From: Myxococcota bacterium
GTDB taxonomy: Bacteria; Myxococcota_A; UBA9160; UBA4427
DNA: 64,000 nt
Direction: 5' to 3'
Assembly: GCA_046583095.1 (NCBI GenBank)
Contig: JAYGDB010000048.1
Location: forward strand, 18,865-82,864
A program made the position numbers and the translations under genes. Positions 29,863 to 39,360 of the stretch are shown in pieces. Numbering within the stretch: the stretch's first letter is position 1; each line of letters begins with the position of its first letter. The notes beneath the pieces were generated by a model, which saw only the letters and a list, made by a program, of their open reading frames with translations, ran no database searches and was not told where the DNA came from.

Positions 29863-31038
29863 ATGTACATCGACTACACGCCCGAGCAGAAGGCCCTGCG
29901 AGAAGAGCTGCGCTCGTACTTCGCGAAGCTGCTGACCCCCGAGCGCCGCGCCGGACTCCGCGGAATGGAAGGCGGCCCGACGTATCGGGAAACCGTCCGG
30001 CAAATGGGCAAGGACGGCTGGCTGGGTGTCGGCTGGCCCGAGGAGTACGGCGGCCAGGGACGCACGGCCCTCGAGCAGTTCATCTTCATCGACGAGGTGC
30101 GGCGCTGCGGAGCCCCGCTGCCCTTCGTCACCTTGAGCACGGTCGGCCCGGCCCTGATGGAGTTGGGGAGCGAAGAGCAGAAGGCCGAGTACCTGCCAAA
30201 GATCCTCGCGGGCGAAATCCACTTCGCCATCGGCTACACGGAGCCCGAGGCCGGAACCGACCTCGCCTCGCTCACGATGTCCGCGGTCAAGGACGGCGAC
30301 GCGTACGTGATCAACGGGACGAAGATCTTCACCAGCGGCGCCAACATCGCCGACTACATCTGGCTGGCGGCCCGCACGAACAGCGAAGGCAAGAAGCACC
30401 ACGGCATCACGATCTTCATCCTCGATACGAAGGATCCGGGCTTCAGCTCTTCACTGATCCATACGCTCGGTAACGGCGCCACCTGCATGAGCTACTACGA
30501 GAACTGCCGGGTGCCGGAACGCAACATCGTGGGCGGCCTGAACGGCGGCTGGCGACTCATCACCACCCAACTCAACCACGAGCGGGTGGGACTCGCAGCC
30601 TTCGGCGCCCTCTCCCTCAAGCACCTCGACGACGTCGTCGCCTGGGCGAACGAAACCGAGGGCGAAGACCGCCGCCCGGTTTCGGAAAGGCCCTGGGTAC
30701 AGATCGCGCTGGGCGAGGCGAAGGCACGTCTCGAGGCGATGAAGCTCATGAACTGGCGGATGGCCTGGCAACTCGAACAGGGCAGTCTCGATCCCGCCCA
30801 GGCCTCGGCCGTCAAGGTCTACGGCACCGAGACGGTCGTCGAGGTCTACCGGTTGCTGCTGGACGTGGTCGGGAGCGCCGGCACGATCGTCGCGGGCTCC
30901 CCGGGTGCCATCCTGCAAGGTGACCTCGAGGTGAACTACCGAGCCTGCCAGATCAACACCTTCGGGGGCGGCGTGAACGAGGTCCAGCGCGAGATCGTCT
31001 CGATGGCCGGCCTTCGCATGCCGCGCGTGCCGCGGTAG
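29863..31038 (+). CDS. acyl-CoA dehydrogenase family protein (pair 2, first subunit)
   Basis: MYIDYTPEQKALREEL.., GYTEPEAGTDLASL and a C-terminal FGGGVNEVQREIVS. Confidence 0.9.
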   Translation: MYIDYTPEQKALREELRSYFAKLLTPERRAGLRGMEGGPTYRETVRQMGKDGWLGVGWPEEYGGQGRTALEQFIFIDEVRRCGAPLPFVTLSTVGPALMELGSEEQKAEYLPKILAGEIHFAIGYTEPEAGTDLASLTMSAVKDGDAYVINGTKIFTSGANIADYIWLAARTNSEGKKHHGITIFILDTKDPGFSSSLIHTLGNGATCMSYYENCRVPERNIVGGLNGGWRLITTQLNHERVGLAAFGALSLKHLDDVVAWANETEGEDRRPVSERPWVQIALGEAKARLEAMKLMNWRMAWQLEQGSLDPAQASAVKVYGTETVVEVYRLLLDVVGSAGTIVAGSPGAILQGDLEVNYRACQINTFGGGVNEVQREIVSMAGLRMPRVPR

Positions 31039-31046
31039 GAGAAGAG

Positions 31047-32177
31047 ATGGACTTCTCCTTCACGGAAGAGCAAGAAGCCGTTCGCGACCTCGCGCGCGAG
31101 ATCTTCAGCGACCACGCCGACCCCGAGCGAATTCGCGCGTGCGAGGCCTCGGTGGAGGGCATCGATCGCGAACTGTGGGATGCCCTTGCCAAGGCGAATC
31201 TCCTCGGCCTGGCCGTCTCCGAAGACCACGGTGGTTCGGGGATGGGCCTCTCCGAGGCCGCCCTGCTGCTCACCGAGCAGGGACGCAGCGTCGCCCAGGC
31301 CCCGTTGCTCGCCCACATCGTGATGGCGGGCATGCCGATCGCCGAATTCGGGAGCGACGCCCAGCGCGAGCGTTACCTGCCGAGAATGGCGACCGGCGAG
31401 GTGATCCTGACAGCGGCTCTCAACGAGTACGCGGCGGTCGACCCGGCCCGACCCCGCGTCAGCGCGAAACCCGACGGCGACGACTGGCTGCTCGAGGGCG
31501 AGAAGATCTGCGTACCCGCGGGCCACCTCGCCGAGCGCATCCTCGTCCCGGCGCGGACCGGTAACGACACGATCGGCGTCTTCCTGCTCGATCCCAGCGC
31601 AGAAGGCGTCACGATCGAGCGCCAGAAAGTGACCAACCACGAGGCCCAGGTGCAGCTCGTGCTCGCCGGCGCGCGTATCGACGGGGGCGACGTGTTGGGC
31701 GATCCCCGGGACGGTGAGGCGATCGTGCGCTGCATCGAGGAGCGGACCGCGATCGGCCTGTGCGCAATCCAGCTCGGCGTCGCAGAGGAAGCACTACGTC
31801 GCACCGCGGAGTACACCGGCATCCGAAAGCAGTTCGGTAAGGCGCTCGGCTCCTTCCAGGCCGTATCCCTGCGCGCCGCCGACGCCTACATCGACCTCGA
31901 GGCCATGCGCGCCACCCTGTGGCAGGCGCTGTGGCGACTGGATCAAGGCTTGCCCGCCGGGATCGAGGTCGGTGTGGCGAAGTGGTGGGCGTGCCGTGGG
32001 GGTCAGCGCGTCGTCCACACCGCACAGCACCTGCACGGCGGCATTGGCGCCGATATCGACTATCCGATCCACCGCTTCTTCCTGTGGGCGAAGCAGCTCG
32101 ATCTCTCCCTCGGCGGTGCCTCGGCCGAGCTTGCGAAGCTGGGCGCGCTGGTATCCCGAGCGAGCGCAGACGCCTGA
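31047..32177 (+). CDS. acyl-CoA dehydrogenase family protein (pair 2, second subunit)
   Basis: MDFSFTEEQEAVRDLA.., 8 nt after the previous ACAD. C-terminal HLHGGIGADIDYPIHRFFLWAK. Confidence 0.9.
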   Translation: MDFSFTEEQEAVRDLAREIFSDHADPERIRACEASVEGIDRELWDALAKANLLGLAVSEDHGGSGMGLSEAALLLTEQGRSVAQAPLLAHIVMAGMPIAEFGSDAQRERYLPRMATGEVILTAALNEYAAVDPARPRVSAKPDGDDWLLEGEKICVPAGHLAERILVPARTGNDTIGVFLLDPSAEGVTIERQKVTNHEAQVQLVLAGARIDGGDVLGDPRDGEAIVRCIEERTAIGLCAIQLGVAEEALRRTAEYTGIRKQFGKALGSFQAVSLRAADAYIDLEAMRATLWQALWRLDQGLPAGIEVGVAKWWACRGGQRVVHTAQHLHGGIGADIDYPIHRFFLWAKQLDLSLGGASAELAKLGALVSRASADA

Positions 32178-32194
32178 CTCGCTACAGTAGGCGC

Positions 32195-33352
32195 GTGCCC
32201 GTCGAGATCCGGATGCCCGAGCTCTCCTCCGACATCACCGAGGCAGATCTCGTTTCCTGGCTCGTGAAGCCCGGCGATCACGTCGAGGCCGGCGAGCTGA
32301 TCGCCGAACTCGAGACCGAGAAGTCGACGGTCGAGTTCGAATCCCCGGCCAGCGGCACGCTCGTCGAGATCCTCGTTCCCGAAGGCACGAACGGGGTCGA
32401 AGTGGGGACGGTGCTCGCGCTGTTCGAGCCGGACACGGGCGAGCCCGCCATCAGCGAGCCCGAAGCCGCGCCCGCCCCGATCCCCGAACCGCGTTCGGAG
32501 ATTCGGGCCACGGCCCTCGCACGACGCGCCGCCGAGCAAGCGGGTGTCGATCTCGATGCCATCACCGGCAGCGGCCAGGCCGGCCGGATCGTCAAGGCCG
32601 ATGTCCAGGCCGCGGCGGCTTCGGGCTCGGAGACACCCACCGCGGCATCCGCGCCGAGTCCGGTCGATTCGGAGGCGCCTCACACGTCGGTGCCTGTCTC
32701 GCGCATGCGACGGACGATTGCCGCTCGCCTGACCCAATCGAAACAGACGATTCCCCACTTCTACCTGAGCGTGGACTGCGAGATCGACCTGCTGCTCGGG
32801 ATGCGGACCCGCTTCAACGCCGAAGATCGCCACATCTCGGTGAACGACTTCGTGGTGCGAGCGGCAGCCCTCGCCCTCGTCGAGGTGCCCGATGCCAACG
32901 TGAGCTGGGCAGAAGACGCGCTGATCCGTTACGAGCGAGCGGACGTGGCCGTCGCGGTGGCGACCGAGGGGGGGCTCATCACCCCCGTGGTGCGCGAGGC
33001 CGACCGCAAGGAGCTCGTGACGATCTCGGAGGAGGTGCGCGACCTCGCCGCCCGCGCCCGCGAAGGCAAGCTCCACCCGCGCGAGTACCAGGGCGGGAGC
33101 CTCACCGTCTCGAACCTCGGCATGCACGGGATCGACAGCGTGTACCCCATCCTGAACCCGCCGCAGAGCTGCATCCTCGGAGTTGGCGCCGGGCGGCAGC
33201 AGCCCGTCGTCCGCAACGGAGAGCTGGCGATCGGGACCGTGATGACCTGCACGCTCGCCGCGGACCACCGCGCGCTCGACGGCATCGCCGGCGCGCGGCT
33301 GCTCGCCGCAGTCAAGCAACACCTGGAAGATCCTCGCCGGATGCTGCTGTGA
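32195..33352 (+). CDS. 2-oxoacid dehydrogenase E2 component (dihydrolipoamide acyltransferase)
   Basis: Lipoyl domain IRMPELSSDITEADLVSWLVKPGD..ELETEKSTVEFESPASG, an Ala/Pro linker, an E3-binding-like segment, and a catalytic domain with DHRALDG. GTG 32195 chosen; ATG 32213 is the alternative. Confidence 0.88.
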   Translation: MPVEIRMPELSSDITEADLVSWLVKPGDHVEAGELIAELETEKSTVEFESPASGTLVEILVPEGTNGVEVGTVLALFEPDTGEPAISEPEAAPAPIPEPRSEIRATALARRAAEQAGVDLDAITGSGQAGRIVKADVQAAAASGSETPTAASAPSPVDSEAPHTSVPVSRMRRTIAARLTQSKQTIPHFYLSVDCEIDLLLGMRTRFNAEDRHISVNDFVVRAAALALVEVPDANVSWAEDALIRYERADVAVAVATEGGLITPVVREADRKELVTISEEVRDLAARAREGKLHPREYQGGSLTVSNLGMHGIDSVYPILNPPQSCILGVGAGRQQPVVRNGELAIGTVMTCTLAADHRALDGIAGARLLAAVKQHLEDPRRMLL

Positions 33353-33360
33353 GCCGTTGA

Positions 33361-33378
33361 CGCGGGCCCGGACCCGCG
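33361..33378. terminator. 6-bp GC hairpin between convergent E2 and apbE
   Basis: cgcggg-cccgga-cccgcg. Confidence 0.35.
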
Positions 33379-33386
33379 ACCGGCGA

Positions 33387-34412
33387 TCACCCGCAGGTCG
33401 CCCGTTGCCAACCCGACGTCTGCCAGCTCGATCGGTCGTCCCGAAACACCCGGGCCTCCGCGTTCTCGCCTGCCAGAACGTCGCGGCCTTCTTCCTCGGA
33501 CAAGACCAGCAGCGCGGTGCTGAGTGCCTCGGCGAGCGTCGCGTCGCGTGCCACGACGATCGCCCGCCGGGCTTCACTGATCGCGAGACCGCTGCGCGGA
33601 TCGACGACGTGGCTGTAGCGACGGCCGCCGATCTCGCTCGAACTGCCAAGGCTCGACGAAACCGAGAGCGCCTGGTCGCAGAGTTCGATCACGGCGAGAA
33701 CGCCGCCCTCGTCGTCCTGAACGGCGAGACGCCAGGCCGGAGCGTCCGCGGGTGCGCCCAGCGCCCAGACGCTGCTCTGCCCGAAGCTCAGCAGACCGCG
33801 GTGGAAGCCGGCTGCACGCAGGTCCACCGCGACCGCGTCGAGCGCAAAGCCCTTCGCGATGCCGCCCAGATCGACGGCCATGCCGGCTTCGACGAGCCGA
33901 GCCCGGTGGCCCGGGCGAGAGGAGCCGAGAATGACCGGGCGCCCGACCAGCCCAGCCGCCGCCGCGATCTCCGTCTCGTCCGGAGCGACGCCTCGCTCCG
34001 CGGCCCGCGTCCACAGTTCGACCAGCGGGCCAACACTCACGTCGAAGGCGCCGCGTGAAGAGCGGCGAGCCTCTTCGGCACGCGCCAGCAAGGCGTGCAC
34101 CCGGGGGTCGATCTCGACGTCCTCCCGTCCGGCGCCTGCATTCAGCCGCCGGACGTCACTCCCCTCGACGTAGCGGCTCGCGACACGCTCGAGCGTGGAG
34201 ACCGAGTCGAATGCCGCCGTGAGTGCCTCGCGGGCGCTCTCCTCTTCACCGGGCCGCACCAGCAGCGCGAGGTCGAGAAGCGTGCCCATCACCAGCCGGC
34301 CGTCCTCGACGGGCACGGCCTCGGTGGGCCCCGCGCAGCCGAGGATCCAGACCGCGCACAGCCAGACCCGGACGTCAGCTCTCGGGTTCGGAAAGCGTCG
34401 AAGGATCCTCAT
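33387..34412 (-). CDS. apbE: FAD:protein FMN transferase (ApbE family), lipoprotein
   Basis: Lipobox WILGC, then VMGTLLDLAL, DVSVGPLVELW, DLGGIAKGFALD and HVVDPRSG. ATG 34412 overlaps the upstream gene by 38 nt; GTG 34373 is an alternative start. Confidence 0.9.
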   Translation of the reverse strand: MRILRRFPNPRADVRVWLCAVWILGCAGPTEAVPVEDGRLVMGTLLDLALLVRPGEEESAREALTAAFDSVSTLERVASRYVEGSDVRRLNAGAGREDVEIDPRVHALLARAEEARRSSRGAFDVSVGPLVELWTRAAERGVAPDETEIAAAAGLVGRPVILGSSRPGHRARLVEAGMAVDLGGIAKGFALDAVAVDLRAAGFHRGLLSFGQSSVWALGAPADAPAWRLAVQDDEGGVLAVIELCDQALSVSSSLGSSSEIGGRRYSHVVDPRSGLAISEARRAIVVARDATLAEALSTALLVLSEEEGRDVLAGENAEARVFRDDRSSWQTSGWQRATCG

Positions 34413-34926
34413 CGTCCAGCGGCTCCCATCCCTCGCCCTCGAAGTTCTCCTGGGAGCCCGTGAAGACGGACCACACCGAGACGACGACCAACACCGCCAG
34501 GCTGCCCTGCAACAGCAGGAAGCCCGCCACCTTCACGATCGCGAACGCCTCGCCCCCATAGCGAACCATCCAGCTCGCTCCTTCGTCCAGCAGCCCGGCG
34601 AAAAAAGGCACCGAGATCAGCCATGCCTTCGCGCGGCCCGAGAGGGGCACGAAGAGCATCAGGTGAGTCATCACGAGCAGCAACATGCCGATCGCAAACA
34701 GGTGGAAGTGCGAAACCTCGAGCAGTCCCTGGTAGGTGCGGGGCGAGGTGAACTGCTCGGGAGCACCGAGGTAGTACGCGGCGACCGAGGACGGAGCCAG
34801 CGTCATCTTGTTGAAGTAGAGAAGTCCGTTCGTCAGCCACAGAATGCCGACGTAGACCGAGTAGATCAGTACGATCACCTGCAGCAGGCGATTGCGCGAC
34901 CATTCTCCCGTTACGACCCAACGCAA
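34375..34926 (-). CDS. 4-TM membrane protein with His cluster in TM2 and acidic C-tail, unknown family
   Basis: 183 aa with four hydrophobic spans, LLEVSHFHLFAIGMLLLVMTHLMLF, and a tail GEGWEPLDDEDPSTLSEPES. Tightly packed between the FMN-binding gene and apbE. Confidence 0.7.
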   Translation of the reverse strand: MRWVVTGEWSRNRLLQVIVLIYSVYVGILWLTNGLLYFNKMTLAPSSVAAYYLGAPEQFTSPRTYQGLLEVSHFHLFAIGMLLLVMTHLMLFVPLSGRAKAWLISVPFFAGLLDEGASWMVRYGGEAFAIVKVAGFLLLQGSLAVLVVVSVWSVFTGSQENFEGEGWEPLDDEDPSTLSEPES

Positions 34927-34929
34927 GCT

Positions 34930-35502
34930 TCAGTCCCCCGAACCGATCAGGACCGTATGGTAGGCCAGCGCCCGCCGGATCCCGTCTGTTGCGACACGCG
35001 TAGAGAGGGTCGCGTTCACGACCCCGTGCACGTCGCTGCCAACCCGCAGCCGATCCTGCGCGGTCTTGCCCGCAAACTGTGCGTACCACTTTTCCGAAGG
35101 CAGGTAGTCGAGGGGCTCGTGGAACGCGAGGATACGAACCGATCGAACGTCGCCCTCGGGGCCCAGGACCACCATCAACGCAGCCGGATGGGTTCGCACC
35201 GTGTGGACGTCGATGTGCGCATAGCCCAGCACCTCGTCGCCCCGGTACGCGGTGAAGATCGTCACGAGCTTCGACTCGAGCTTGGCGCGGCCGGCCTGCT
35301 GGATCGCTTCGACCTGCTCGGGGGTCAAGAGGGTCGTCTTCTTGTCGACCCGATCGGCGTCCGGGAACGCGAGGGAGATGGCCTCCTGACGCGAGTGGAA
35401 GACCTTGGCGTGGGCCGGTAGCGCGCACAGCGAGAGCACGGCGAGGGCGACGAGAACGAGACCGCCTGCAGCCACACGGCGAGCCGGCTCGTCAGAAGAC
35501 AA
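34930..35502 (-). CDS. FMN-binding domain protein (exported/anchored), probable ApbE substrate
   Basis: Signal/anchor VLVALAVLSLCALPAHA. The FMN_bind-like C-terminus DVHGVVNATLSTRV resembles the (S/T)GA(T/S) flavinylation site. Confidence 0.75.
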   Translation of the reverse strand: MSSDEPARRVAAGGLVLVALAVLSLCALPAHAKVFHSRQEAISLAFPDADRVDKKTTLLTPEQVEAIQQAGRAKLESKLVTIFTAYRGDEVLGYAHIDVHTVRTHPAALMVVLGPEGDVRSVRILAFHEPLDYLPSEKWYAQFAGKTAQDRLRVGSDVHGVVNATLSTRVATDGIRRALAYHTVLIGSGD

Positions 35503-36892
35503 AGCCGATGCTCGCCTGGAACTCGTCTGCGATCGATCCCCTCTTCGCGCGGAAGTCCCGATAATCCATCTTGATCACGACCTGCGGGATGGGCTTGAAG
35601 CTCAAGCCCACTACGAGCAGGTCGTAGTCGCGAGCGGGGTCCTTCGAGAACCCGCTGGCGACCGCATGCTGGGTGTCCAGGCGCTCGTACCGAAAGAAGG
35701 GCTCGAGCGACATCTCGCTCTCCCACACGAGCGGGAGCACGTCGTAGCCGATCTCCGCGTAGCCGCCGATCATCTCCTTCGCGACGGAGTCCGTTGCGCC
35801 GGCACCCAGCGCCGTCGAAAGGCGCCCGGCATCGTCCACGAAGGCCTGGGCGAACAATCCGCGCACTTTCAGACCGTGGCCCTGGTACTGCGCATGCAGC
35901 TCGTAGATGCTCACGAAAGTGTCCGGAATCGGGAAGCTCTCGTTTTCCGGGACCAATGCCGACATTCCCGGCGGCGCGGAACACGAGCTCACGCAGCGGC
36001 TGATCTGCTGGTTCTGACCGGACTTCCCGGCATATACCGACGCACCGAAGGTCAGGCCGGGCACAACCGCACTCATGTCGTAATCGAGACGTCCCACGAA
36101 GGCCCAGTGGTCCGCGAGCGCCTTGCTGCCCTTCTGACGGCCACCGCGCAGGCCACTGGAGCTGAAACCCGTCGCGTCGAAGCCGTTGACCGCGTACATC
36201 CGGTAGCCGACGTCGCCGGCCGCGCCGAGGTCGATGCTGCCGAAGATGCCGACGCCGTTCTCGCGCCAGGTGGACGGAAGAATCTGGCGCTCGACCTCCG
36301 GCCGCTCCGCACCGTAGTAGAACGGGGGCTCGTGAGCTTCGTTGAGGAAGCCCATCGGAAGCAACAACAGGCCGGCGCGAATGTTGAACTCTTCCTCGAA
36401 CAGGAAGTCGATGGTCAGGAACTCCACGGATGCCGAGCCTTTCCCGCTCGTGCTGCCGTGCTCGAACTCCACCTCGGAGTTGAGAACCAGCCAGTCGTTG
36501 AACTTGTAACCGGTATAGAGAACGAAGCGGAGGGCATCGAAGATGTCCTGGGAGCTGCCCGCGTCCTTCAGGAAGTGGCGGAAGCGGATGTCGCCGTAGC
36601 CGCCGATGGAGAGGCCCCGGTCGCGCCGGTAGACCTTCGAAGCCGCCGGCCCCAGCCCGGAGAAACTCGCGTTCGGGTCGGCCTCGTCGGGCACGGCCTG
36701 CTCGCTCCTGAGGTCCGCGATCTCCTCTGCGAGCACTTCGATCTTCTCTTCGAGGACCTCGATGGCGGTCTTCGTCCTCACCGCTTCGTCCGGCTCGGCC
36801 GCCAGGGCAACCGGGCCGCAGAGGCAGCCGACGACCGCCATCAGACAGACCTCCCGGGCCCAGCCCGAGCCGCGCCGGCCTTGCTTCTGCAT
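35492..36892 (-). CDS. outer-membrane porin (phosphate-selective OprO/P-like) with N-terminal coiled coil
   Basis: GGAGG RBS, signal peptide ..VALAA|EP, heptad segment AIEVLEEKIEVLAEEIADL, long beta-rich body, and terminal ..SIGFVF. Confidence 0.75.
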   Translation of the reverse strand: MQKQGRRGSGWAREVCLMAVVGCLCGPVALAAEPDEAVRTKTAIEVLEEKIEVLAEEIADLRSEQAVPDEADPNASFSGLGPAASKVYRRDRGLSIGGYGDIRFRHFLKDAGSSQDIFDALRFVLYTGYKFNDWLVLNSEVEFEHGSTSGKGSASVEFLTIDFLFEEEFNIRAGLLLLPMGFLNEAHEPPFYYGAERPEVERQILPSTWRENGVGIFGSIDLGAAGDVGYRMYAVNGFDATGFSSSGLRGGRQKGSKALADHWAFVGRLDYDMSAVVPGLTFGASVYAGKSGQNQQISRCVSSCSAPPGMSALVPENESFPIPDTFVSIYELHAQYQGHGLKVRGLFAQAFVDDAGRLSTALGAGATDSVAKEMIGGYAEIGYDVLPLVWESEMSLEPFFRYERLDTQHAVASGFSKDPARDYDLLVVGLSFKPIPQVVIKMDYRDFRAKRGSIADEFQASIGFVF

Positions 36893-36975
36893 GATTCGTC
36901 AGCCTCCACGCCGCGAAGGGCTCGCGATGCCGAAAACGGCAGCCGCTATCATTAACGAAAACGGTTTTCAATTTC

Positions 36976-37004
36976 AATATACTATATTATCATTTAAAAT
37001 CCAA
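36976..37004 (-). promoter_or_regulatory. candidate sigma70 promoter of the porin operon inside an AT-rich island
   Basis: On the minus strand, TTGGAT-N17-TATATT. The spacer contains AAATGATAATATAG, a Fur-box-like ATGATAAT core. Confidence 0.3.
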
Positions 37005-37276
37005 TACTTATGAATATATCGACCGAGACGAGCGCTGTGTAGCGCCGCCAGTAAGCCCTCGGAGCCGGAGACTTCCCCGAGCCGGTCTCCGCCAGCCGCG
37101 GGCGCTCGGCGCAGTGCAGCAAGTTCGCTCCAGAGCGGAGTCTTCCGCTCCCAACGTTCGGACGAGGGCGTGGGTGCCCTGCACGCACGCTCCCGCCTAA
37201 ACGTCACCCGCTGATCATCCGAAGAGAAAGCTACCGCCGTCTGCCTTCGTAAGACGGACGATCAAGGGAGATCCCG

Positions 37277-38263
37277 ATGGACTTCATCCACGTGTTTGCC
37301 GCCTTCATGGATTTCATGCAGACCTTTGGCGCGTTCTTCGTCGCCCTCGCGGTGACCCTGGCCATCGTGCAGGTGTTCTTCTCCTACGCGCTGCAAGTAA
37401 TCGCCGAGAAGAACGAGTTGTCCGACTCTGCTGCGTTCATCGCATGGATTCCGATCCTGAACCTCTACCCGTTCGTCAAGGTGGGTGGAGGTAACTTCAA
37501 GACGTTCGTCTTCGGCAGCATCGGAGCCTGCGTCGCCGCCGTCGTGACGGTCAAGGGCATGGCGGCGATGGGTGTCGATGGAGTCAATCTCAGCCTCGTT
37601 GCGGCGGCCCTCGCTCTGCTCGGCATCGCCTACTTCGCGCGCATCGCGATGGCGACAGCGGAGCGCCGGGGTCTCAACAAGTGGCTCGGGCTGCTCGCCC
37701 TGGTTCCCGTCGCGAACTTCCTCATCTACCCGTACATCGCGTTCCACGACGGCTTCAAGCCTCCGAAGAAGCTGGCGCTGGTTCTCGGCTTGCTGCTCGC
37801 CTTCGGCCCGCTGCCGATGGAAATCGCGAGACTCGAGCAGCTCAACAAGACGACGCAGGAGATCGCCCAGACCGATCGGGGCAATGGCGTCACCATCGGG
37901 CAGTCCCTCCATGCTCTCCAGGCAACCCGGGAGGTCGGCCTCCTGGTCGCCATGGTCGCGGGCCTCGATCCCTCGGATCCGGACGAACGCTCGAAGATGA
38001 TCGACGCTCTCGACTCCGCTCAGAAGAAGCTCGACGAGCACGCGGAAGCCATCAACGACGAGGTGTACCAGACGCTCCAGGGCCTGCTGTCCGTGCAGTC
38101 CGCCCGCCTCGCGAAGACCTCGACTGACGACATGCATAATGCCGCAGCCGACAGTCCCGAAGCGTCGCCGGCGGTCGCTGCGGACCCCGTCGCGAAGACG
38201 GACGTGTCGCTCGAGTCGCCTCTGCAAATCGCCGAGGGCGCAGCACCCCCCGCCAGTCGCTAG
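37277..38263 (+). CDS. hypothetical membrane protein (N-terminal multi-TM half, C-terminal helical soluble half)
   Basis: GGGAG RBS. Internal repeat-like WIPILNLYPF / LALVPVANFLIYPY TM motifs. No recognised family. Confidence 0.65.
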   Translation: MDFIHVFAAFMDFMQTFGAFFVALAVTLAIVQVFFSYALQVIAEKNELSDSAAFIAWIPILNLYPFVKVGGGNFKTFVFGSIGACVAAVVTVKGMAAMGVDGVNLSLVAAALALLGIAYFARIAMATAERRGLNKWLGLLALVPVANFLIYPYIAFHDGFKPPKKLALVLGLLLAFGPLPMEIARLEQLNKTTQEIAQTDRGNGVTIGQSLHALQATREVGLLVAMVAGLDPSDPDERSKMIDALDSAQKKLDEHAEAINDEVYQTLQGLLSVQSARLAKTSTDDMHNAAADSPEASPAVAADPVAKTDVSLESPLQIAEGAAPPASR

Positions 38264-38313: not shown

Positions 38314-39360
38314 CTAGCTGGGGACGACCTCGATCGCGCCGGGCTCGCCTGTGCAGACCTCGCCGATCGTCGCTCGCGCGAGGGTGCCTCTGGCCTCGAG
38401 GTCGGCGAGGAGCGCGGCCTCGTTCTCCTGAGATACGGCCAGGAGCAAGCCACCCGAGGTCTGGGCATCCGCCAGCACCAGTCGGTCGATCTCGGCGACG
38501 CCGGTCGCGAAGCGCGCGGCCTTCGCGACGTATTCCAGGTTGCGCTTGCTGCCTCCCGGCACGAAACCCGCCTCGGCGAGCTCCCGGGTCGAGCGCAAGA
38601 GCGGAACTTCCGACGCCACCAGACGCGCCGCACAGCCGGAAGCGTTCAGCATGTTGTGGAGGTGGCCGAGCAGACCGAAGCCCGTCACATCGGTCGCAGC
38701 TCGAACTCCCGCCGCTAGCGCCGCGTCTCGAGCGCCGTCGTTGAGACACAACATCGAAGCCACCACCTCGCGCAGTCCGTCCGGATCGAGCTGCTGCTTC
38801 TTGAGGGCCTGGGCGGCGATGCCCGCGCCGATCGGCTTCGTCAGCACCAGCTTGTCGCCGGGCCGGGCGGCAGCCTGGGTCAGAGTCCGATCCGGGTCCA
38901 CCGTGCCCAGCACACAGAGCCCATACTTGAGCTCAGGATCGAGCACCGTGTGACCGCCGGCGACCGCACAGCCCGCCTCGGCGGCCTTGTCGCGTCCACC
39001 CTGGAAGATCTTCGCGAGAACCTCGCGAGGCAATTTCTCCTCCGGGAAGCCGCAGATCGCGAGGGCGATCTGTGGCACGCCTCCCATCGCATAGACGTCG
39101 GAGATCGCGTTGGCGGCTGCGATTGCGCCGTAGTCGTACGGATCGTCCACGACCGGCGTGATGAAATCGACAGTGAACACGAGGGGTGAGCCGGATTCCG
39201 GACGCAGGAGTGCCGCATCCTCCATGGAGCCGACTTCGGCATCGACCCACGGATGATCGAAAGGCACGACCTGCTCCAGGACCTCGACGAGGCCCTCAGC
39301 GGAGAGCTTGCGGGCTCAGCCGCCGCCGGGAACGAGCGATGTCAATCGAATCTCGCTCAC
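38314..39360 (-). CDS. selD: selenide, water dikinase (selenophosphate synthetase), Sec-containing; in-frame TGA at 39316-39318
   Basis: The track ORF (38314..39267) lacks the SelD N-terminus. Reading upstream in frame gives GTG(39360)-SEIRLTSLVPGGG-U-ARKLSAEGLVEVLEQVV-PFDHP. This aligns with E. coli IRLTQYSHGAGC17GCK20ISPKVLETIL, with U on Cys17 and the Lys conserved. GAGGAGAAGG RBS precedes it, and 348 codons compares with 347 in E. coli. Confidence 0.9.

Follow-up and report, generated by a model that had tools for sequence, protein, structure and literature searches.

Periplasmic proteins with attached flavins increasingly appear to be widespread agents of redox chemistry outside the cytoplasm, often in iron assimilation, and about half of the bacteria with flavinylation machinery are without a characterised system that uses it. 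Meheust et al. (2021, PMC8238504) tied several ApbE-flavinylated extracytosolic electron-transfer systems to iron assimilation, among them PepSY-like, MsrQ-like and P19/FTR1 clusters. Rodionov et al. (2004, PMC545781) described a hypothetical porin, psp, behind delta-type FUR boxes in Geobacter metallireducens and Desulfuromonas. The psp product is weakly similar to PF07396, and its homologues were confined to Aquifex and uncultured bacteria; a role in the entry of ferrous iron was speculated upon. Here we analyse a four-gene module in a 64,000-nucleotide (nt) stretch of a Myxococcota bacterium (contig JAYGDB010000048.1, positions 18,865 to 82,864), referred to below as the window. At window positions 33387-36892, on the minus strand, lie four co-directional open reading frames (ORFs) for a porin, a flavin mononucleotide (FMN)-binding protein, a protein with four transmembrane helices (4-TM protein) and ApbE, in this order. 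The module newly joins three things, namely what is probably the porin predicted in 2004 to be under Fur control, a stand-alone RnfG-like flavoprotein with its ApbE, and the Pfam family PF27139, to which the 4-TM protein belongs. On balance, we favour with modest confidence the reading that the operon is a Fur-repressed, envelope-spanning iron-acquisition system, in which iron is handled reductively in the periplasm.

The module resembles the systems of Meheust et al. in that the genes of ApbE and of its FMN-binding substrate, both exported, accompany that of a membrane protein (PMC8238504), in its genomic link to iron regulators and transporters, and in the same proposed role in iron reduction or assimilation. 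In contrast to those systems, its membrane protein falls in none of the five classes (NapH-, MsrQ-, PepSY-, DsbD- and NqrB/RnfD-like), nor in DUF4405, and its operon includes a dedicated outer-membrane porin. The published survey applied a Pfam threshold that the FMN domain of this clade does not reach, and so would have missed most members; the module, with thousands of metagenomic homologues, was largely invisible to it. Every member that was looked up is annotated “hypothetical protein”, and no description of PF27139, aq_1264 or the four-gene combination was found in the literature. We also note a related cluster in Supplementary file 1 of PMC8238504, undiscussed there, at genes 100-103 of contig NVVY01000001.1 from Emcibacter_A sp002749135. 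It comprises a divergent ApbE, a porin assigned to K07221 (421 amino acids, aa), an FMN_bind protein (184 aa) and a K09939 protein (210 aa), and the last may be a membrane partner other than PF27139. The cluster was automatically labelled “OrganohalideReductase”, apparently owing to a PceA-like gene a few genes off.

The porin of the module is probably the psp of Rodionov et al., as judged from the description of psp, which fits the porin family, and from the naming of PF27139 after an Aquifex protein. The weak similarity to PF07396, the homologues in Aquifex and uncultured bacteria and the delta-type FUR boxes are the shared features (PMC545781). The difference is that psp was listed as a single gene, with no mention of FMN-binding, 4-TM or ApbE genes downstream.

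The four genes are tightly packed (Table 1). The porin and FMN-binding genes overlap by 11 nt. This overlap becomes a 16-nt gap if the FMN-binding protein starts at 35475, which yields the 181-aa form chosen by public gene callers. A 3-nt gap separates the FMN-binding and 4-TM genes, and the 4-TM and ApbE genes overlap by 38 nt. The coordinates and spacing of the original prediction are reproduced here, and the last junction, which it had left as an overlap or an abutment, is now given a length. The ApbE gene faces a convergent gene for a lipoamide acyltransferase (E2) downstream, and the porin gene has a divergent gene for a 328-aa membrane protein upstream, so that the four genes form one unit. 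The unit consists of four co-transcribed-looking genes behind a promoter-like site that holds a Fur-type operator.

Table 1. Coordinates of the module, its predicted sites and its neighbours in the window, with upstream-extension examples from related loci
Feature	Sequence	Position	Strand	Remarks
Porin-like gene	window	35492-36892	-	466 aa
FMN-binding-like gene (exported RnfG/NqrC-like FMN-binding protein)	window	34930-35502	-	190 aa from TTG start; signal peptide, predicted cleavage between AHA and KVF
4-TM gene	window	34375-34926	-	183 aa
ApbE gene	window	33387-34412	-	341 aa
Predicted flavinylation site H159-G-V-V-N-A-T165	window	35008-35028	-	conservation of Thr165
TM2 segment of the 4-TM protein	window	34663-34719	-	E70-x-x-H73-x-H75 (34702-34719) and H88 (34663-34665); most conserved residues of the family
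Fur-box-like 17-mer TTGAAAACCGTTTTCGT	window	36955-36971	-	7-1-7 palindrome; centre 78 nt before the porin ATG
Sigma-70-like promoter candidate TTGAAA-18-AATGAT	window	36948-36977	-	consensus match; Fur box in spacer
Two acyl-CoA dehydrogenases and lipoamide acyltransferase (E2)	window	29863-33352	+	
Interval between the ApbE stop and the convergent E2 stop	window	33353-33386		34 nt
Multi-pass membrane protein	window	37277-38263	+	328 aa
AIRS/AIRS_C (SelD/ThiL-like) protein	window	38314-39267	-	317 aa
Upstream extension	L039	6494-7825		
Upstream extension	L047	4181-5543		
Upstream extension	L087	6774-7619		
Upstream extension	L003/L009			
Upstream extension	L065			

The arrangement recurs in dozens of independent contigs, far beyond chance. 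A set of 94 loci, which includes a few duplicates, was collected by one genome scan, one metagenome scan and exact-protein look-ups, and 12 further context loci were added by later look-ups; the genes were placed by profile searches on six-frame ORFs together with public gene calls. The gene of the FMN-binding protein is located directly upstream of the 4-TM gene in 81 of 81 loci, and the porin gene is upstream of the former in 37 of 40. ApbE lies directly downstream of the 4-TM gene on the same strand in 47 of 55 loci, and nearby on the opposite strand in 6 of the 55. The order porin, FMN-binding protein, 4-TM protein (then ApbE) is kept in loci where the 4-TM proteins are only 28-37% identical (L102, L100, L105 and L106). 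The module is conserved across many uncultured Gram-negative lineages, and these counts bear out the prediction of a self-contained module.

Genetically, ApbE is tied to the other three genes, and in at least five lineages it is fused to the 4-TM protein. The 4-TM-ApbE fusions fall into five representative clusters of less than 50% mutual identity, with an extra hydrophobic segment between the two domains, and one of the clusters keeps the porin and the FMN-binding protein upstream. These fusions bear on how ApbE is organised and supplied at the membrane. Opposite-strand ApbE genes, checked in L004, L010/L011, L028 and L031, are the last genes of convergent nqrABCDEF-apbE operons, and L007 has an nqr-operon ApbE in addition to the module's own. 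The ApbE of the nqr operon is the sole nearby one in 4 of these 5 loci, and the module appears to share this Na+-NQR maturation enzyme where it has no ApbE of its own. As some relatives appear to draw on the enzyme encoded in an adjoining nqr operon, the module does not always have an ApbE to itself. In L004, L007, L010 and L031, a HupE_UreJ_2 membrane protein is encoded divergently from the porin.

The recurrence of the fusions and the adjacency of ApbE in most loci would also fit a 4-TM protein that mainly serves ApbE, either as a membrane anchor or as the route of flavin adenine dinucleotide (FAD) to the periplasm; the FAD route to ApbE is still obscure according to a review (PMC12052999). 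We consider this very improbable, as the 4-TM gene is tied more closely to the FMN-binding protein, which it follows in every locus counted, than to ApbE. Moreover, ApbE is absent nearby in L003/L009 and L008, and belongs to the adjacent nqr operon in several other loci. The nqr operons there were seen without a PF27139 gene of their own, and the sole 4-TM gene in those loci is that of the module. Were the 4-TM protein a general exporter of FAD, it ought to accompany each ApbE system, and hence such operons count against the FAD route.

The last gene product is, by its sequence, unambiguously a lipoprotein FAD:protein FMN transferase, in agreement with the first assignment. It matches PF02424 with E=2.2e-54 and 185 bits (cut-off 25.6), and the solved FAD:protein FMN transferases with E=1.7e-26 (PDB 5mgy). 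The sequence includes the motif DLGGIAKG and a lipobox, ILGC, with Cys26, which is preceded by a basic and then a hydrophobic stretch, as in a lipoprotein signal.

Several comparisons support the placement of the 190-aa protein in the FMN-binding (RnfG/NqrC-like) family. Of 27 diverse members of the family, 26 match FMN_bind (PF04205) at E<=0.1 (best 2.2e-7), and the profile of the family aligns with RnfG (PDB 9eri_G) over nearly the whole length with E=1.8e-7. The window protein itself reaches 15.1 bits against FMN_bind, for which the cut-off is 22, and so falls short of it; a partial match to the NosR N-terminus has E=1.6e-5. The signal peptide cleavage-type site, A-x-A followed by KVF, is conserved in the family. 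Thr165 is invariant in 121 of 121 close relatives and in 27 of 27 diverse sequences, and aligns with the Ser/Thr of the RnfG ...GST/GAT... motif, where the canonical ApbE motif, D-x-x-[S/T]-G-A-[S/T] (PMC12052999), places the flavin. In the clade of the window protein, the motif reads H-G-[VI]-V-[G/N]-A-T, with Asn in the place of Gly in the window protein, and canonical motifs occur in the distant members L010, L009, P0175 and L100 (e.g. DVDAVTGAT and EIDGISGAT). The proposal of an FMN_bind protein with an ApbE site is upheld by the family membership and the invariant threonine, while the score below the Pfam cut-off and the non-canonical motif speak against it. An apparent fusion of the FMN-binding and 4-TM proteins (P0288) was rejected as a frameshifted gene call.

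The protein shares with RnfG and NqrC the FMN-binding fold and the predicted covalent attachment of FMN to Thr by ApbE. Unlike them, it stands alone, and has a cleavable-looking signal peptide rather than an N-terminal anchor; the module includes no other Rnf or Nqr subunits, and the Thr motif is a variant in this clade. No nqr genes were detected in the window by tblastn, which agrees with the original statement that Nqr is absent here; the partial NosR match is the only Nqr, Rnf or Nos trace among the four proteins of the module, Rnf and Nos not having been searched across the window.

The 4-TM protein belongs to PF27139 (Aq_1264_TM), a Pfam family without known function, according to the precomputed matches of the exact window protein and of all listed homologues. 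The AlphaFold model (pLDDT 91) comprises four long helices and a short periplasmic helix. Among 45 diverse homologues, G54, H75 and H88 are invariant, and Y52, E70, H73 and K132 are at least 90% conserved. The HFH motif (H73, H75) and H88 are all situated in TM2 of the model, consistent with the early description of a 183-aa 4-TM protein with HFH...H in one helix. Structural comparison of the model with PDB (Foldseek) returned at best MAPEG proteins with E=0.57 and a TM-score of about 0.3, and the family profile gave only noise against PDB sequences and Pfam. The membrane classes associated with flavinylation (PF12801, PF01794, PF03929/PF16357, PF02683, PF03116 and DUF4405) were not matched by the window protein or the 45 homologues in Pfam searches. 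With no relative in Pfam, in PDB sequences or among PDB folds, the protein is not a fragment of an Nqr, Rnf or Nos component, a possibility that had been kept in view from the start, but a member of a family of its own.

The predicted topology is N-in/C-in. The fusions with ApbE require a fifth transmembrane helix before the periplasmic ApbE domain, and cytoplasmic domains are attached to the C-terminus in other members. In P0272 (locus L101), the 4-TM domain continues into a DtxR-like metal-binding and SH3 (FeoA-type) region, whose DNA-binding part is degenerate, and in P0285 it continues into a PilZ (cyclic di-GMP) domain. Tandem 8-TM duplications of the Aq_1264_TM domain were found in 13 representatives (P0282, P0294, P0304, P0313, P0314, P0322, P0323, P0329, P0340, P0349, P0373, P0375 and P0386). 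The N-terminal half retains W30, E70, H73 and K132 in 13 of 13, and never H75 or H88, while the C-terminal half retains N33, Y52, G54, H75, H88, R122 and K132, and H73 only rarely. This complementary loss of residues between the halves indicates that the working unit is a dimer, whose composite site would combine H73 and W30 from one protomer with H75, H88, Y52 and R122 from the other. A simple symmetric di-haem homodimer (H75/H75', H88/H88') is weakened by the retention of these residues in one half only. The pattern is compatible with an inter-subunit cofactor, e.g. one haem between H73' and H75, an arrangement seen in SdhC/SdhD and proposed for FezC, or with an inter-subunit metal path, and the 4-TM protein could be an electron link or a metal permease. 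As an electron link, it would resemble the small cytochromes b of the FezC/DUF4405 group (PMC11334425) and the succinate:quinone reductase anchors SdhC/SdhD, in which haem is bound between two subunits and which are likewise small helical membrane proteins with few conserved transmembrane His residues; the dimeric unit with an inter-subunit site indicated for the 4-TM protein and the association with flavinylation and iron are further likenesses. In contrast to these proteins, no sequence or fold similarity to them was detected in the 4-TM protein, the tandem pattern is unlike a simple symmetric bis-His arrangement, and a haem is hypothetical.

The same conserved residues can be read as stations of a metal path. 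In such a scheme, which is possible though unlikely, the 4-TM protein would be the inner-membrane metal permease of an iron-uptake system, with a path along the dimer interface past E70/H73/H75 and then H88, and the flavoprotein would be a redox helper at the mouth that is recharged by another protein; the coupled permeases FTR1-P19 and EfeUOB are comparable. The E-x-x-H-x-H motif by the periplasmic face resembles such a station, as does another invariant His where this helix reaches the cytoplasmic side, and the tandem forms always hold H75 and H88 together in one half. The fusions to a metal sensor (DtxR-C with FeoA-type SH3) and to PilZ at the cytoplasmic C-terminus are of a kind common in regulated transporters. 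Another inner-membrane iron transporter is not encoded in most loci, a separate PepSY_TM reductase-type protein in L100 could supply electrons, and P19/FTR1 clusters with FMN-binding genes are known (PMC8238504). However, a single four-helix bundle is unlike any known metal transporter, and the flavin would be left without an electron source in most loci. The FeoAB proteins of L100 would, in addition, make a 4-TM permease redundant there.

The porin is predicted to start with a signal peptide, after which residues 43-65 form a coiled-coil helix in the periplasm and the rest a barrel with ~18 strands (AlphaFold, pLDDT 80). The model resembles the solved general porins OmpC, Omp-Pst, OmpM1 and OmpF, with Foldseek E values of about 1e-13 to 1e-10 and target TM-scores of 0.54-0.70. 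By sequence, the protein has no match in Pfam or NCBIfam at E<=0.1, PF07396 included, and none in PDB. It is a member of a large, unnamed family (5158 matches), in which a precomputed PF07396 match is present in 1 of 120 close relatives, and whose conservation is unusually high for a porin. The strand NSEVEFEH (residues 138-145; NSExEFEH in the family) is invariant and includes a ladder of E140, E142 and E144, which alternate along the strand and should therefore face one side. The internal loop 178-213, NEAHEP...ERPEVER...PSTWRENG (NExHEP in the family), is nearly invariant. The invariant Glu ladder together with His, and no arginine ladder, suggests an eyelet that is selective for cations or metals rather than phosphate. 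The porin shares the barrel and a ladder of charged residues on one strand with OprP/OprO (PF07396). It differs from them in having no PF07396 match and a ladder of Glu instead of Arg, by which the opposite charge selectivity would be implied. Of the OprO/P-like porin with an N-terminal coiled coil initially proposed, the porin fold and the helix remain, and the likeness to OprO/P is not borne out. Flavinylation of the porin, as in DUF3570, was considered owing to an AGAT at residues 363-366 and rejected; this motif sits in a variable, non-conserved stretch.

An ordinary barrel size and a conserved internal loop argue against a wide sheath for a redox protein. The original prediction had raised the possibility of a porin-flavoprotein analogue of the porin-cytochrome conduits, i.e. 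an MtrAB-like conduit for extracellular electron transfer. The gene of a redox protein does adjoin that of an outer-membrane barrel, and the N-terminal periplasmic coiled coil of the barrel could dock a partner. Nevertheless, the barrel is of the size of OmpC, OmpF and OmpM1, the single FMN site would be far from the cell surface, multihaem or multiflavin proteins are not encoded, and none of the four proteins contains a CxxCH motif. Fur control and the linkage to Feo suggest assimilation, not respiration, and we regard such a conduit as extremely improbable.

The evidence for iron comes mainly from the region upstream of the porin and from the relatives. An AT-rich island (~36940-37020) in this 66% GC genome contains 4 promoter-like sites, compared with 0.3 expected from shuffles. 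The 17-mer TTGAAAACCGTTTTCGT, located in the spacer of a promoter candidate, is the sole site with at most 2 mismatches to TGAWAAYNRTTWTCA in the 64-kb window. It agrees with the delta-proteobacterial FUR box WTGAAAATNATTTTCAW of Rodionov et al. (2004, PMC545781), which was derived from the upstream regions of feoAB and fur, and with individual sites given there, among them cTGAAAAcCgTTTTCAa. Of 33 non-redundant loci, 19 have a box with at most 2 mismatches in the 430 bp before the porin, compared with 4 sites in the other 401 kb of locus DNA. In several loci, the boxes overlap with an offset of 6 bp, as Rodionov et al. described (PMC545781). In 15 loci, the gene that directly precedes the porin, in the same orientation, belongs to the FUR family (Pfam E~1e-34). 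The NCBIfam models rank these neighbours as Fur, then PerR, then Zur, all under the curated cut-offs. In L100, the porin, FMN-binding and 4-TM genes are followed by those of a DtxR/MntR-like protein, PepSY_TM, FeoA and FeoB, and in L101 the porin and FMN-binding genes are followed by the 4-TM gene fused to DtxR-C and FeoA-type domains, and then Fur. A tblastn search with the FeoB, PepSY_TM and DtxR of L100 detected no copies in the window or the other loci. The Fur box, the adjacent fur genes and the feo associations strengthen the iron reading; a role in iron reduction or uptake, at first only a guess, gains support from these and from the DtxR and PepSY_TM neighbours.

The regulator could in principle respond to another signal. 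The module would then serve another metal or a stress response, for example as a redox system of the periplasm under PerR, Mur or Zur that deals with manganese, or with repair or detoxification in oxidative stress. The Fur-family neighbours score under the Fur equivalog cut-offs and match the PerR and Zur models too, the DtxR-like neighbour in L100 is best scored as MntR, and the 7-1-7 architecture is common to Fur, PerR and Zur boxes. Yet the best matches are the Fur models, the box fits a motif that was itself obtained from iron genes (feoAB and fur), and two relatives have FeoA/FeoB or FeoA-type domains in association with the module. We find this alternative improbable.

The favoured reading, reductive iron acquisition under Fur control, would operate as follows. 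When iron is scarce, Fur would leave the operator and the operon would be expressed. The trimer-type porin barrel, with its Glu ladder and a His/Glu-rich constriction loop, would admit Fe2+ or small Fe3+ complexes to the periplasm. There, ApbE, tethered to the inner membrane, would take FMN from FAD and link it covalently to Thr165 in the exported RnfG-like protein. This flavoprotein may dock on the 4-TM dimer, whose composite His/Glu site would be near the periplasmic face, and the 4-TM protein would link it to the membrane electron pool, either via a His-ligated cofactor or directly from quinol. The reduced flavin would keep or make iron ferrous, and the iron would be imported by a transporter encoded elsewhere (one relative has FeoB within the operon), or perhaps by the 4-TM protein itself. 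Precedents are the flavinylated proteins of iron assimilation (PMC8238504) and small membrane cytochromes formed by homodimerisation (PMC11334425). The sequences show the gene identities, the conservation and fusions, and the associations with Fur boxes, fur and feo; what the porin admits, the attachment of flavin at the variant motif, the way in which electrons flow and the part played by the 4-TM protein are what we infer in this scheme.

Several observations weigh against this reading. The motif H-G-V-V-N-A-T has three departures from the canonical one, the change of Gly to Asn included, and G-to-A substitutions reduced flavinylation in a model enzyme (PMC12052999). The 4-TM protein has no detectable kin among known redox or transport proteins, and the residues retained in the tandem forms disfavour a symmetric bis-His haem by H75/H75' and H88/H88'. 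On the regulatory side, the Fur box and the promoter are consensus matches only, the sub-threshold scores of the FUR-family proteins leave room for control of the PerR, Mur or Zur type, and the DtxR-like neighbour in L100 scores best as a manganese regulator, MntR. FeoAB, DtxR or PepSY_TM neighbours occur in only 2 of about 10 distinct context types, and an iron transporter gene is not apparent in the module or among its immediate neighbours in the window.

If the reading is true, it offers a testable four-gene model of iron uptake free of siderophore receptors for Gram-negatives of low-iron marine and sediment habitats, and a first function for PF27139. A tentative and somewhat unlikely extension is that PF27139 represents a new minimal inner-membrane class, in which a His site formed by two protomers couples a covalently flavinylated periplasmic protein to the membrane; it would be either a small cytochrome or quinol site of a new type, or an iron permease with redox gating. 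In combination with the Glu-ladder porin, it would then constitute a siderophore- and TonB-independent, Fur-controlled mode of reductive iron uptake, widespread in uncultured Myxococcota, Thermodesulfobacteriota and other Gram-negatives.

In many relatives, the module is extended upstream by genes for a small TPR lipoprotein, a ~160-aa protein without a family and a fur-family protein (examples in Table 1), none of which is present in the window. The TPR and 160-aa pair also precedes the FMN-binding and 4-TM genes in porin-less loci, and resembles the Fur-regulated genY(C)-genZ pair of Rodionov et al. (PMC545781).

A simple scan found no intrinsic terminator in 33200-37300, and the interval between the ApbE and E2 stops holds a GC-rich palindrome, GCGGGTCCGGGCCCGC, without a T-run. 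An Rfam scan of 33000-37600 for riboswitches such as that of FMN gave a single spurious snoRNA match. A functional link of the flanking AIRS, acyl-CoA dehydrogenase and E2 genes to the module is not apparent; these neighbours also flank it in the closest relatives (L001, L002 and L012), and the pair of E2 and acyl-CoA dehydrogenase adjoins it in L010 as well. The 328-aa protein has no Pfam or NCBIfam match. It spans the membrane several times and ends in a long C-terminal tail that is helical or of low complexity, and a counterpart is found at the same place in L001 and L002 (49% identity).

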